In this document: positions 5,012 to 35,900 of the stretch, piece after piece
Numbering within the stretch: the first letter of the stretch is position 1
Layout of the letters: each line of letters begins with the position of its first letter
Virus record (IMG/VR): IMGVR_UViG_2554235185_000012
DNA from: a virus
Lineage: Duplodnaviria; Heunggongvirae; Uroviricota; Caudoviricetes
Reading direction: 5' to 3' (one strand)
DNA: 41,213 nt
Translations under genes and position numbers: made by a program
Notes under the pieces: model-generated
Seen by the model: only the letters and a program-made list of their open reading frames with translations
What the model was told of the DNA's origin: nothing
Databases searched by the model: none

Positions 5012-5374
5012 TTAATGACCTGCTGCGCGGAGTTTTCCGTCAGGTTCACCGGCAAGAGTCAGTAATTGTCCCTGGTCTTCCTGCAGAATAGTCAGGCGAC
5101 CACCGCGATTGACATACATCGGCGTTTCGGTGGTGTCTTCTTCGGAAATTTTCCCGCGGTTAGTCGGGCGAACATATGAGAGTTTGTGTTTGATTTTCAC
5201 ACGGTTCTCATCAAATGGTTCGATTTCCAGGTTGAGTGAGACCTTACCTTTGGTTTTCGTGTTCATCACACCGGAAGCGACTTCACTGAGAACTGCGCCG
5301 ATTTTGGTTTCAAATACGCCGCCGTCCAGCTCCCCGATAAATGCCTGCACATCAGTACTGCGTTCGCTAGCCAT
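5012..5374 (-). CDS. Hypothetical early protein, 120 aa (YfdP-like size); real start at the internal ATG at 5374
   Basis: AGGAGCAGCAAA precedes the ATG of MASERSTDV; the 226-aa track ORF has an Arg/Cys-rich non-protein-like extension. Confidence 0.55.
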   Translation of the reverse strand: MASERSTDVQAFIGELDGGVFETKIGAVLSEVASGVMNTKTKGKVSLNLEIEPFDENRVKIKHKLSYVRPTNRGKISEEDTTETPMYVNRGGRLTILQEDQGQLLTLAGEPDGKLRAAGH

Positions 5375-5811
5375 TTTGCTGCTCCTCATCATATCGACCC
5401 TGCAAGGCCGATTAGTTTCTCCACAAAACAGAGAAGAACACCTGCGGTAGCAGCCGCCCGGATGGATTGGGTTATGAGCCCGTCGTCCGGTGATGCTCTT
5501 CTCTGTTTTGTAAAAAGGACGGTACCAGCCGGAAGCAAGGGTACAAACTGGTACCGCCAGGACTACACACAGCATAAAGTTGTGGTGCCGGGTGCCTCCC
5601 GGTGCCTGGCGAAGGTTGCACACCAGACGGGTGGGTATCCACAGAAGGTCGACTGTCAGCCTCAACCTTAACCCGCGTGCGCTGAGCCGCATTCACCACA
5701 ACGCTAAGGATTCTCTTTGGTTGAAAATACTTAGCTGTTATGTGCCTGTCTTTTCACCACTTCAGGCTCGGTGGTATCCTTTTAAGCCCGTATACATAAA
5801 AGGAAAATCAA

Positions 5812-6057
5812 ATGACTTTTGATGAAAAAGAACTTGATAATGCAATTAATAAAATCATCGTAACGTCGCTCTTTTTCTGTCTCAGCGACACTCAGCAGAA
5901 ACAGTTCTACGAATCGGCTTTCAACATGATCGAGCGTTGTTGTTTCTGCGATGCCGACGAGTTACCTGAAAAAATCAGGAAACAGTTGGCTGATGCTCTT
6001 CGAGTGCGACTTTCTGACCAATTTTCTGAAATGTGCTCTCCGAATTTGGACAAATAG
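5812..6057 (+). CDS. Hypothetical small protein (81 aa), antisense to the early-left operon
   Basis: AAGGAAAA Shine-Dalgarno 8 nt before the ATG; overlaps the 3-prime end of the minus-strand ORF 5975..6250, so only one of the two is likely real. Confidence 0.3.
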   Translation: MTFDEKELDNAINKIIVTSLFFCLSDTQQKQFYESAFNMIERCCFCDADELPEKIRKQLADALRVRLSDQFSEMCSPNLDK

Positions 6058-6250
6058 AAAAAGGCCATTTCCATTCAGGGTCTGATGGAAATACTTCAGC
6101 CTGTTCCAAAGCACGGCGTAAAGAGAACACAACTCCAGCCATAATCTGATGTTTCCCATTGGTCCAGCTATCGCCGCTCTGATCTACAGGGGCGGCTATG
6201 TCGTATGACCAAACGACTTCACAGTTATTGTTTAAAATCTGGACTTTCAT
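5975..6250 (-). CDS. Hypothetical first gene of the pL operon (91 aa from the internal ATG)
   Basis: GCAGGTG Shine-Dalgarno before ATG(MKVQIL); Trp-rich; not Arg-rich, so not N-like. Confidence 0.35.
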   Translation of the reverse strand: MKVQILNNNCEVVWSYDIAAPVDQSGDSWTNGKHQIMAGVVFSLRRALEQAEVFPSDPEWKWPFSICPNSESTFQKIGQKVALEEHQPTVS

Positions 6251-6373
6251 TTCATACACCTGCTTTAACATGAGTGCCTGGTGGCACAACATGACTCAAC
6301 GAATCATCCTGGACTTCATATGCCCCAGGCGGCTACTTCGTGGGCGTCCTGCCTGTTCGTTGTCGGTAAAATG

Positions 6374-7436: not shown

Positions 7437-8177
7437 CTATAACCGATTGTATTTTATTGACTCATGAATCAACGCCTTGCCCATTACATAAAGCTGATCC
7501 TGCGATTTTTCATCGATGTACCATTTCTCATAGGCAGGGTTATCCGAAAGAACGGCTAGCTTGTCACCTTGCATTTGAAGACGTTTAACATGAAAAGTCT
7601 TACCGTAAACGAAAGAGTAAATTCCATCAGTCTGGAAGTGACGAACAGAAATGTCGACAAACAGTCGATCTCCGGAAACGAGAGTAGGGGACATACTATC
7701 GCCATTTACAGTCATAACCTTAATATCATCCTGAGAACGGTTACCGAAAAGAGAACGGGCATGTTCTGTTGTGAACTCAATGGCGTAGAGCACATCAACA
7801 TAGTCTGAAAGCATATAGGTTCCAGGTCCTGCGCTAACGCTAAGATCTAAAACTTCTATCCTGTATACGTCGGGTTTTGTTGGATTGGGGATGCTTGCCA
7901 TTTCCTTACATCCTTCTCTCTCGCCAACACCATATTCTAAATATGAAGCCGATACCCCCAGAGCCAACGCAAGTTTATTCATGACAGAGGCACGAGGCTT
8001 CGCTGCGCCGATTGTGTATCGCCGCGCCATTTCATATGTAACGCCAACAAGACTTTTGAGTTGGGTGACAGAAATTCCCTTGTTTGTCATTAACTCGTTT
8101 AGTCTCTTGGCGAAATCTGGATACTTCTGTTCTTCTACCATAGGTAGAAGATTACTCACATCACATACGCTCGTCAT
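7437..8177 (-). CDS. cI: CI-type prophage repressor (HTH plus S24 LexA-like autopeptidase domain)
   Basis: N-terminal HTH (GISVTQLKSLVGVTYEMARR), C-terminal GDSM serine and KRL lysine motifs; divergent from cro; start chosen at ATG 8177 as a leaderless pRM product (alternatives at 8198 or 8141). Confidence 0.8.
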   Translation of the reverse strand: MTSVCDVSNLLPMVEEQKYPDFAKRLNELMTNKGISVTQLKSLVGVTYEMARRYTIGAAKPRASVMNKLALALGVSASYLEYGVGEREGCKEMASIPNPTKPDVYRIEVLDLSVSAGPGTYMLSDYVDVLYAIEFTTEHARSLFGNRSQDDIKVMTVNGDSMSPTLVSGDRLFVDISVRHFQTDGIYSFVYGKTFHVKRLQMQGDKLAVLSDNPAYEKWYIDEKSQDQLYVMGKALIHESIKYNRL

Positions 8178-8180
8178 TTC

Positions 8181-8222
8181 TATTTTAAGTAGTTGCAATT
8201 CGCTACTTTAAGTAGCATTATC
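8181..8222. promoter_or_regulatory. oR operator cluster with pR (rightward) and putative pRM (leftward)
   Basis: pR -35 TTGCAA (8193..8198), 17-nt spacer, -10 CATTAT (8216..8221); 15-bp palindrome GCTACTTTAAGTAGC at 8202..8216; TAAAAT on the minus strand just upstream of the cI ATG. Confidence 0.55.
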
Positions 8223-35325: not shown

Positions 35326-35900
35326 CAAACGATGATTACATCCGTCTGTTGTCGGCACTGTTGCCCCCTGGTCCGGCGTGGTCAGCCAGCGATCCGGCGA
35401 TTGCCGGTGCGGCACAGTCATTAACCCGTGCTCATCAGCGTGCGGATGCCCTGATGCGGGAGCTGGATCCGCGCACCACCACCGAACTGATAAACCGCTG
35501 GGAGCGTCTGTGCGGCCTGCCGGATGAATGTATTCCGGCAGGGACGCAGACCCTTCGCCAGCGTCAGCAACGGCTGGATGCGAAGGTTAACCTGGCGGGT
35601 GGCATCAATGAGGATTTTTACCTTGCGCAGCTTGCTGCCCTGGGCAGACCAGATGCCACCATCACGCGATACGACAAAAGCACGTTCACCTGCTCATCGG
35701 CCTGTACTGACGCGGTGAATGCGCCGGAATGGCGGTATTACTGGCAGGTCAATATGCCAGCTGCCACCAACACCACCTGGATGACATGTGGCGATCCCTG
35801 TGATTCCGCACTGCGTATCTGGGGGGACACCGTTGTCGAGTGCGTGCTTAACAAACTCTGCCCGTCGCATACCTACGTAATTTTTAAATATCCGGAGTAA
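35316..35900 (+). CDS. Mu gp48-like (YmfQ/DUF2313-type) tail protein
   Basis: Order, immediately before tail fiber. Confidence 0.55.

Follow-up and report, generated by a model that had tools for sequence, protein, structure and literature searches.

The stretch of DNA analysed here (hereafter, the window) comprises the 41,213 nucleotides of the IMG/VR virus record IMGVR_UViG_2554235185_000012, assigned to the Caudoviricetes. Between positions 5375 and 5811 it contains no credible gene. This gap is bounded on the left by orf32, a YfdP/Sb37-like gene on the minus strand whose ATG lies at 5374-5372, and on the right by an open reading frame (ORF) of 81 amino acids (aa) on the plus strand that starts at 5812. 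As the original prediction, made from the letters of the window, had noted, the island is richer in G+C than its flanks (0.535-0.575 across 5300-5700, vs 0.355-0.49 to the left and 0.375-0.43 to the right, in 200-nt windows). It is an untranslated spacer of the leftward early operon, between an orf33-like gene (6292-5975) and the orf32/YfdP-like block, and it holds two separate RNA modules on the minus strand, in the direction of that operon. The first (5703-5577) is a divergent member of the STnc100/EcOnc27/PasD superfamily of prophage small RNAs (sRNAs) and is followed by an intrinsic terminator. The second (5511-5423) is a three-way junction that copies part of the initiator tRNA, an apparently undescribed tRNA mimic that is widespread in enterobacterial prophages. 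The former is the ordinary part of the island and the latter the interesting one.

The repressor gene lies at 7437-8198 on the minus strand. An operator-like repeat, CTTTAAGTAGCA, is found at 8206-8217, on the pR side, and at 6389-6378 on the minus strand, with the same spacing to -35/-10 hexamers at both sites: it falls within the spacers of two divergent promoter-like sites, TTGCAA-17-CATTAT (8190-8221, plus strand) and TTGATT-17-CAATAT (6402-6374, minus strand). As judged from these motifs, the two sites are probably pR/oR and pL/oL. Since the repeat and the hexamer spacing are shared with the pR side, we place pL at ~6402-6374, firing leftward. The first gene of the early-left operon is a 105-aa ORF (6292-5975, minus strand, phrog_3195); after the island come orf32 (5374-5012, minus strand, phrog_204), a DUF2303 protein and an HD-domain deoxynucleoside monophosphate (dNMP) phosphatase, and by analogy with the annotation of Shigella phage SfV further early-left genes would follow down to xis and int. 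The island is 99.8% identical to SfV (U82619.2), whose annotation leaves this stretch blank apart from a putative terminator at the right edge; past the island on that side, the window departs from SfV and carries another repressor module. Whole or in part, the island is matched in 2784 of 5426 complete E. coli genomes, as well as in SfV-type Shigella phages, Stx2-converting phages and Salmonella ST64B, and the annotation over it is either nothing or hypothetical proteins, including ymfH of K-12.

Such annotations raise the question of whether the region codes for protein, either as a minus-strand ORF of the YmfH type (5692-5375, fused to orf32) or as a 69-aa ORF on the plus strand (5462-5671, phrog_3651). 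K-12 does annotate the homologous stretch as the protein YmfH, and the plus-strand ORF matches phrog_3651 with an E-value of 2e-46 (5462-5668) and is open in ST64B too. However, no Pfam family was found for any of the overlapping ORFs, and the 118 sites that vary at 5375-5692 among 31 distinct homologues are spread evenly over codon positions in every frame (e.g. 36/38/44 and 27/28/28). Between the plus-strand ORF and its ST64B counterpart, single-site codon differences number 5/3/7 at codon positions 1-3, with 6 synonymous and 21 non-synonymous codons, whereas a neighbouring real gene taken as control gives 4/5/46 and 42 vs 46. The minus-strand frame over the tRNA mimic, moreover, differs between the window and ST64B. 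We find a protein-coding role barely credible; phrog_3651 probably consists of ORFs called over a conserved non-coding RNA island and not of real proteins. The island is non-coding, as had been proposed, and the overlapping ORFs bear no coding signature of a frameshifted gene that could have overturned that view. Once the region is read as RNA, spurious genes drop out and the range of the STnc100/PasD family comes to include the early-left operon.

The original prediction had described two nested inverted repeats. Both exist, the coordinates given for the longer one being 1-2 nt off: its arms occupy 5423-5447 and 5487-5511 (25 nt, 84% complementary), with an exact 15-mer at 5423-5437 / 5497-5511, and the other is the exact pair GTTGTGGTG (5579-5587) and CACCACAAC (5694-5702). 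Instead of being nested within one structure, they close two unrelated modules. A third exact repeat of 9 nt (5520-5528 / 5548-5556), absent from that description, is the stem of the terminator. Compared with dinucleotide shuffles, the 436-nt minus strand folds with z = -6.1 and the plus strand with z = -3.8, while the 89-nt hairpin formed by the long repeat alone reaches z = -7.4. Both of the first two repeats are retained in homologues through compensatory changes, and in both modules the G-U pairs are consistent with the minus strand only. Because of these G-U pairs and of its better folding we take the minus strand to be the RNA strand; together with the covariation among homologues, this upholds the earlier proposal of a structured RNA on the leftward (pL) transcript.

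The core RNA (5703..5577, minus strand) consists of five helices and a pseudoknot. The repeat GTTGTGGTG/CACCACAAC forms its closing helix P1 (5702-5694/5587-5579), within which lie P2 (5690-5675), a bulged hairpin with a UNNGC loop, P3 (5674-5672/5631-5629), P4 (5627-5621/5611-5605) and P5 (5602-5598/5592-5588), whose loop reads AGGCA. The strand directly after the 5' side of P3 (5669-5663) meets the P4 loop (5618-5612) to form the pseudoknot, here AAGGUUG with CAACCUU. At the gathering level, Rfam gives no hit in the whole window. A permissive version of the Rfam scan that had been suggested yields a single meaningful hit, which concerns the right half of the island only: RF02076 (STnc100), matched at full length over 5724..5509 on the minus strand with 39.5 bits and an E-value of 5.3e-7, where canonical STnc100 copies score 54-132 bits. 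The low score is accounted for by P2 and P3, which have been rebuilt by compensatory changes in the window copy: CCCC/GGGG has become GCGG/CCGC in P2, with the bulged A and the UNNGC loop retained, and GCG/CGC has become GGG/CCC in P3.

A covariance model of our own, R1, describes the five helices and was built from 27 diverse copies. It recovers the window copy over all 127 positions with 87.6 bits (E ~1e-23). Across its 134 matches (95 distinct sequences), in an alignment that is fitted to the model and a sample that was seeded with a 22-mer, 94% of cells pair, and among the distinct sequences double changes occur at 18 of 28 pairs; none of 500 shuffles and no slid register approaches these values. 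This covariation backs P1 to P4. P5 is invariant in the seeded set and covaries in distant early-left relatives, where CCGGG/CCCGG stands against GGUGG/CCACC with the AGGCA loop retained. At least nine different complementary sequence pairs fill the pseudoknot positions across subfamilies, and these matches average 6.8 nt, vs 4.9 nt when the loops are shuffled. The window copy could also form a local hairpin, 5669-5662 with 5652-5645, that competes with the pseudoknot. The 22-mer itself, CACCGGGAGGCACCCGGCACCA, occurs exactly in more than 120 IMG/VR viral contigs, in very different contexts. The family also gains a pseudoknotted core model. R1 also matches the plus strand of the window weakly at 35708-35819 (10.2 bits, E 0.43, starting CGGUGAAUG), which is probably a chance hit.

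With STnc100/EcOnc27/sRNA103 and with PasD1/PasD2 the window copy shares the closing helix UGGUG...CACCA, the AAU junction, the bulged P2 with its UNNGC loop, the P4 hairpin, the invariant CACCGGGAGGCACCCGGCACCA, a downstream intrinsic terminator and a prophage location. Association with Hfq is documented for members of the family and for the K-12 homologue. STnc100 partly overlaps EcOnc27/sRNA103, an Hfq-binding sRNA downstream of stx2B (PMC12711010), Northern blots in enteropathogenic E. coli (EPEC) show PasD1 and PasD2, sRNAs whose stability depends on Hfq (PMC8550237), and PasD and STnc100 have a common ancestry with different seeds (bioRxiv 10.64898/2026.05.13.724894). Unlike canonical STnc100, the window copy falls below the gathering cut-off with its P2 and P3 stems replaced by compensatory changes, has another interior and another linker, lacks a recognisable promoter of its own, and lies in the early-left operon between orf33 and orf32 and not in the Q/stx/lysis region beside tRNA genes; its pseudoknot is missing from the Rfam consensus-structure line printed with the match. 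We also considered whether the element is PasB, and rejected this identity: PasB sits in an operon of structural genes.

In two subfamilies a near-consensus promoter (TTGACA or TTGACC, a spacer of 17-18 nt, TAAATT) would put the start of transcription at P1, and the RNA is followed by its own terminator; we therefore regard these members as discrete small-RNA genes. Canonical copies stand alone or form tandem arrays with as many as five members; they often have phage tRNA genes as neighbours and lie between Q and the lysis genes. Arrays of three to five diverged copies with their own terminators, beside tRNA genes, can be seen in several of the contigs (L010 2265-3380; L057 4378-5462 and 8378-8518; L018 342-1038; L026 1724-2344); their stems differ by compensatory changes and the 22-nt segment is identical. 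In another contig (L007 1156-1765), which represents one phage type, a Q-like antiterminator gene and the holin gene flank two copies. The start of the first copy coincides exactly with a TTGACA-17-TAAATT promoter, and its place corresponds to that of the lambda pR' leader (6S RNA). In phages of this type, the invariant GGUGAAU at the 5' end might act as a promoter-proximal pause signal. Phage mEp460 (L124 2694-2831) and three further contigs (L231, L243 and L247) share only the left 184 nt of the island, yet carry a P1-closed RNA in the same slot, either GUUGUGGUG...CACCACAAC or GUUGUGAC...GUCACAAC, with a very different interior that R1 scores at 23 bits or does not hit. As read from the sequences, in phages of the mEp460 type the slot is conserved and its content replaced.

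The copy in the K-12 prophage e14 (L002 4002-4313), which adjoins xisE/intE, is 90.8% identical to that of the window and is annotated as the protein YmfH; the annotated gene takes the AAUG junction of the core as its start codon. This copy is damaged in both modules, by a deletion in the P5 loop and a G-to-A change, and by a tRNA-mimic loop that reads UUAAUAA. A published re-analysis of K-12 RIL-seq data lists 'ymfH' with 81 and 117 chimeric fragments and 3-4 partners (PMC8175672, Supplementary Table 1). Its SIC values of 0.667 and 0.75 mean that it is always the second RNA of the chimera, a U-tract lies nearby, and its sRNA score of 0.113 is above the authors' candidate line of 0.1 and just above that of DicF (PMC8175672). 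By these published data, the e14 'ymfH' RNA behaves as an Hfq-bound sRNA. Over-expression of 'ymfH' has been reported to trigger the Retron-Sen2 toxin (bioRxiv 10.1101/2020.06.22.160242), and the active agent in that experiment could be the RNA and not the protein.

Downstream of the core in the window come a single-stranded linker, UUUAUGCUGUGUGUAGUCCUGG (5559..5578, minus strand), and an intrinsic terminator (5512..5558, minus strand) with its stem at 5558-5548/5528-5518, followed by UCCUUUUU and a U-tract at 5516-5512. The terminator stem has 13 bp in the minimum free energy (MFE) fold and begins 21 nt past P1. In ST64B this place is taken by a stem of entirely different sequence, GUCGGCGUC...GACGCCGAC, after which the same UUUUUAC follows; the arrangement recurs in more than 20 species of Enterobacterales, and a terminator lies 20-45 nt downstream of the core in every subfamily. 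Among 15 homologous leaders, the motif GCUGUGUGUAGUC(U/C)UGG of the linker recurs in most other genera, even with a differing core and terminator stem, which makes it, on sequence grounds, a candidate seed or protein-binding site.

Core, linker and terminator together would form an sRNA of ~190 nt, a reading that we hold to be probable jointly with that of the tRNA-like module given below. In this scheme, polymerase starting from pL would transcribe orf33 and then the core, and most transcripts would end at 5512-5516, before orf32, to yield an RNA that, by the family data and the K-12 RIL-seq results, is expected to bind Hfq. The terminator hairpin and its U-tail would be the usual Hfq-binding module and set the 3' end of the sRNA, the conserved core would most likely serve as a stable scaffold, and the variable linker would pair with targets in trans. 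For the window copy, we thus infer Hfq-dependent action in trans. The processed sRNA that the original prediction had listed among its candidate roles fits the right half of the island in this way, as a divergent member of the STnc100/PasD family with its own terminator, whereas the tRNA-like left half had been overlooked.

Several observations weigh against this scheme. Close homologues differ more in the linker than in any other part, and within the window it has no target, only matches at chance level. The STnc100 score lies under the gathering threshold of 47, and the family samples were seeded with exact motifs, so that the invariance of these motifs looks inflated. The fold and the 22-nt invariant segment are far more elaborate than in seed-type sRNAs, which hints at a protein or ligand partner. 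The K-12 copy that yields the RIL-seq signal has a mutated P5. Lastly, no promoter was found directly 5' of the core, where a promoter scan gave no sigma-70 site, and expression would rely on pL or on an unrecognised promoter. Two candidates picked by eye, AAGACA-17-TATTTT and GAGAAT (the latter without a -35), are weak and we do not trust them.

The original prediction had listed as a candidate, beside an sRNA, an antitermination RNA resembling put of phage HK022, in which case the core would carry polymerase in cis through 5512-5558 and later terminators and would replace N. The setting is compatible with such a role: there is no N-like protein among the ORFs tested, at least one conserved terminator stands between pL and the downstream early-left genes, the ST64B element lies closer to pL, in an 815-bp gap between cI and sb37, and one phage type has a family member whose start coincides exactly with the promoter that separates Q from the lysis genes. 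The window element also resembles HK022 putL/putR in being a structured early-transcript RNA upstream of terminators in a lambdoid phage without an obvious N. The two have, however, no match in sequence or structure: the 22-mer is absent from the whole HK022 genome even when up to 3 mismatches are allowed, and R1 finds nothing there better than E 1.4, with filters on or off. The put RNA is ~70 nt long, with two stem-loops, and comes right after the promoter (PMC9378689), whereas the window element is a five-helix pseudoknot of ~125 nt with its own terminator. The core (from 5702) begins ~665 nt past the inferred pL, behind the 105-aa ORF with its PHROG match. Furthermore, members of the family are individually followed by terminators and accumulate as terminated RNAs of ~200 nt (PMC12711010, PMC8550237), the K-12 homologue behaves like an Hfq-bound sRNA with a U-tract nearby, and tandem promoter-RNA-terminator units make no sense for an antiterminator acting in cis. 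We consider a put-like function very unlikely.

The same terminator invites another explanation, in which the core is a sensor, a riboswitch or a protein-binding attenuator, that sets how often the terminator fires and thereby gates the tRNA mimic, orf32 and later genes. The pseudoknotted fold, with its invariant junction and loop nucleotides, is more reminiscent of an aptamer than of a seed sRNA, a terminator lies 20-45 nt past the core in every subfamily, and canonical STnc100 has near-identical sequences in its P2 hairpin and its terminator stem (CCCCUNNGCGGAGGGG vs GCCCCUCUCCGGAGGGGC), from which an alternative pairing could follow. This similarity is absent from the window, though, and a non-exhaustive search of 15 diverse early-left leaders brought up no conserved antiterminator pairing between core and terminator, which are separate domains in most MFE folds. 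No Rfam riboswitch family matches either. We judge the sensor unlikely, and retain the terminated sRNA as our reading of the right half.

The second module (5423..5511, minus strand) begins where the U-tract of the terminator ends. The long repeat forms its closing stem of 20 bp (5511-5492/5442-5423), which opens into a three-way junction with two arms, A (5490-5484/5464-5458) and B (5457-5454/5447-5444). Its MFE is -45.5 kcal/mol (z -7.4), with the closing stem present in both MFE and centroid folds. The tip of arm A reads GGG-CUCAUAA-CCC (5481-5469), with CAU at 5476-5474 in the place of the anticodon. Initiator tRNA is distinguished by three G-C pairs above its CAU anticodon loop, and the 14 nt of CGGGCUCAUAACCC (5482-5469, minus strand) are identical to the anticodon stem-loop of the E. 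coli initiator tRNA (tRNA-fMet), for which we took as reference the 77-nt tRNA-Met that 5425 of 5426 E. coli genomes carry at 100% identity. A 22-mer of the module occurs once in the window, with 0 occurrences expected by chance.

The likeness to tRNA came to light through a BLAST match beside annotated tRNAs in Klebsiella phages, and pattern scans then separated two classes of element. Class I, to which the window copy belongs, comes directly after the terminator U-tract and has a closing stem of 19-22 bp followed by GGAGA(A) and an Sb37/YfdP-like gene; it is found in Escherichia, Shigella, Salmonella, Citrobacter, Enterobacter, Kosakonia, Leclercia, Mixta, Erwinia, Klebsiella and others. Class II belongs to phages of the Klebsiella and Raoultella type, where it sits in the Q-lysis region, 6 nt past the last gene of a tRNA cluster, and has a 6-bp closing stem, GGCCUG/CAGGCC, followed by (A/G)CCA, that is, an acceptor-like end. 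Both classes have the same junction topology and share ~24 nearly invariant nucleotides (GACGGGCUCAUAAYCCAAUCCA), whereas covariation is seen in the closing stem, at the base of arm A and in arm B. From 20 species variants of class I, RNAalifold yields the same junction de novo, with 19 pairs and one bulge in the closing stem of all of them; 98.2% of cells pair, eight pairs show double changes, and none of 500 shuffles reaches these values. Folding and covariation across homologues, the check that the original prediction had named, thus speak for both modules of the island. ST64B and one other variant have CUCAUUA in place of CUCAUAA. Among the contigs surveyed, one from IMG/VR (L206) carries a class I and a class II mimic. 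In late regions, STnc100-like cores and class II mimics show no regular linkage. Between the holin and lysozyme genes of Pantoea phage PA-1 (L232 1510-1740), an RNA that starts GUUGUGGUGAAUC and that R1 does not recognise comes immediately after a tRNA mimic; here, in a late region, the two modules are again adjacent, in the opposite order.

The module is not itself a tRNA, given that ARAGORN and the Rfam tRNA model find nothing. ARAGORN reports nothing in the window and nothing in elements of either class, in standard, mitochondrial and pseudogene modes, and the Rfam tRNA model has no hit to the module at E-values up to 10; at the same level, a class II element gives chance hits of the terminator type only. 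In the window copy there is no acceptor stem with NCCA, the 20-bp stem being followed by GGAGAA. No Rfam family covers the module, and we found no published tRNA-like RNA of phages or phage mimic of initiator tRNA in a literature coverage that is incomplete and thus weak evidence of novelty. One might then see in it a DNA relic, a tRNA gene fragment left by integration or recombination and devoid of function at the RNA level. Phage integration sites often hold such fragments, and the e14 element does lie beside xisE/intE. Yet the identity to tRNA-fMet ends after 14 nt, and three helices unrelated to tRNA are kept by compensatory changes and strand-specific G-U pairs. In addition, the element is far from int/att in the window, and class II is found in the Q-lysis region. 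We regard a relic as highly improbable.

The invariant copy of the anticodon arm implies a partner that reads initiator tRNA. One form that this could take is a decoy or sensor for factors that handle the initiator anticodon arm, such as the VapC/MvpT-type PIN nucleases of Shigella and Salmonella, methionyl-tRNA synthetase (MetRS) or the 30S P site, which would protect phage translation or report the activation of a toxin. The 13-14 nt at the apex are those of the tRNA-fMet anticodon stem-loop, including its three G-C pairs, and ~24 nt of the arm remain nearly invariant over more than 15 genera and both structural classes, in contrast to the other helices, which covary. The class II copies, with their NCCA end, belong to phage tRNA clusters. 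Enteric VapC cleaves tRNA-fMet in its anticodon stem-loop (PMC4705866), and YrlA's tRNA-like domain has been proposed as a competitive inhibitor of an anticodon nuclease (PMC7790460). On the other hand, the proposal is purely inferential, only the top 3 bp and the loop match tRNA, ST64B and one other variant depart from the loop with CUCAUUA, and the window copy is part of an mRNA leader and not a free RNA. A decoy or sensor seems to us unlikely. More broadly, and still tentatively, the mimic may represent a new class of phage RNA, a tRNA-like junction without D-arm and T-loop that would be released by RNase III or by tRNA enzymes and act in trans on a host or plasmid factor reading the initiator arm; we think this possible and have more doubt than confidence in it. 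Initiator-tRNA nucleases of the VapC/MvpT type, for which it would be a decoy, and MetRS or the 30S P site, for which it would be a modulator, are the candidate factors. If the mimic does bind or divert a factor specific for tRNA-fMet, temperate phages would have a new route to translation initiation or to tRNA-cleaving toxins.

The explanation that best covers the island as a whole, and that we deem probable on balance, is an Hfq-type sRNA with its own terminator followed by a tRNA-like module that is reached by read-through on the early-left transcript. The tRNA-like RNA would be made only when polymerase reads through the terminator. RNase III would then cut the 20-bp closing stem to give an upstream RNA, a small tRNA-like RNA and an orf32 mRNA with a mature 5' end, while for the class II form of this RNA, release would fall to tRNA-processing enzymes. 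We propose RNase III cleavage because the closing duplex is long in every class I variant examined, much beyond what stability needs; the stem is an uninterrupted duplex of ~20 bp, as is looked for in an RNase III site. The lambda pL transcript carries RNase III sites in the N leader and at sib. Like them, the window element has a long perfect duplex on the early-left transcript, just 5' of a gene and reached only past a terminator; it differs in that the duplex closes a three-way junction with a tRNA-like arm and in that cleavage here is a prediction. In carrying a copy of a tRNA anticodon arm in a non-tRNA, within a 5' untranslated region (UTR), the module also resembles the thrS operator. 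Unlike mimics of that type, it copies the arm of the initiator tRNA, is phage-encoded, and comes in two forms, an mRNA leader with a 20-bp stem and an element of tRNA clusters with an acceptor-like stem and NCCA. Even if the mimic is only a processing signal for RNase III or RNase P, it would still account for the division of the operon into sRNA and mRNA.

The rest of the orf32 5' UTR (5375..5422, minus strand) contains the GGAGAA at 5422-5417, a hairpin at 5411-5406/5399-5394 and the Shine-Dalgarno sequence GAGGAG at 5387-5382, 7 nt before the AUG at 5374; GGAGA and the hairpin, with a loop of the UGCAG type, are conserved across genera. On the other side of the island, a hairpin directly 5' of the core (5703..5735, minus strand; arms 5723-5735 / 5703-5715, 13 nt, 85% complementary) is present in the MFE fold and is kept in SfV-like relatives, with only 2 of its 33 sites varying among the 31 homologues. 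Further upstream, the leader (5736..5811, minus strand) has two small hairpins, at 5777-5784/5797-5804 and 5756-5775, and the SfV annotation places a weak rho-independent terminator of orf33 at ~5792-5824. On the plus strand, the hairpin 5756-5775 followed by ATCCTTTTAA scores as terminator-like and could end an antisense transcript, with nothing else in favour. The 81-aa ORF at the right border (5812-6057, plus strand, phrog_3311) converges on the 105-aa ORF (5975-6292, minus strand, phrog_3195) with an overlap of 83 nt, and one of the two could be spurious. Between the repressor gene and pL, where lambda has rex, there are two further minus-strand ORFs, 7421-7074 and 7129-6722.

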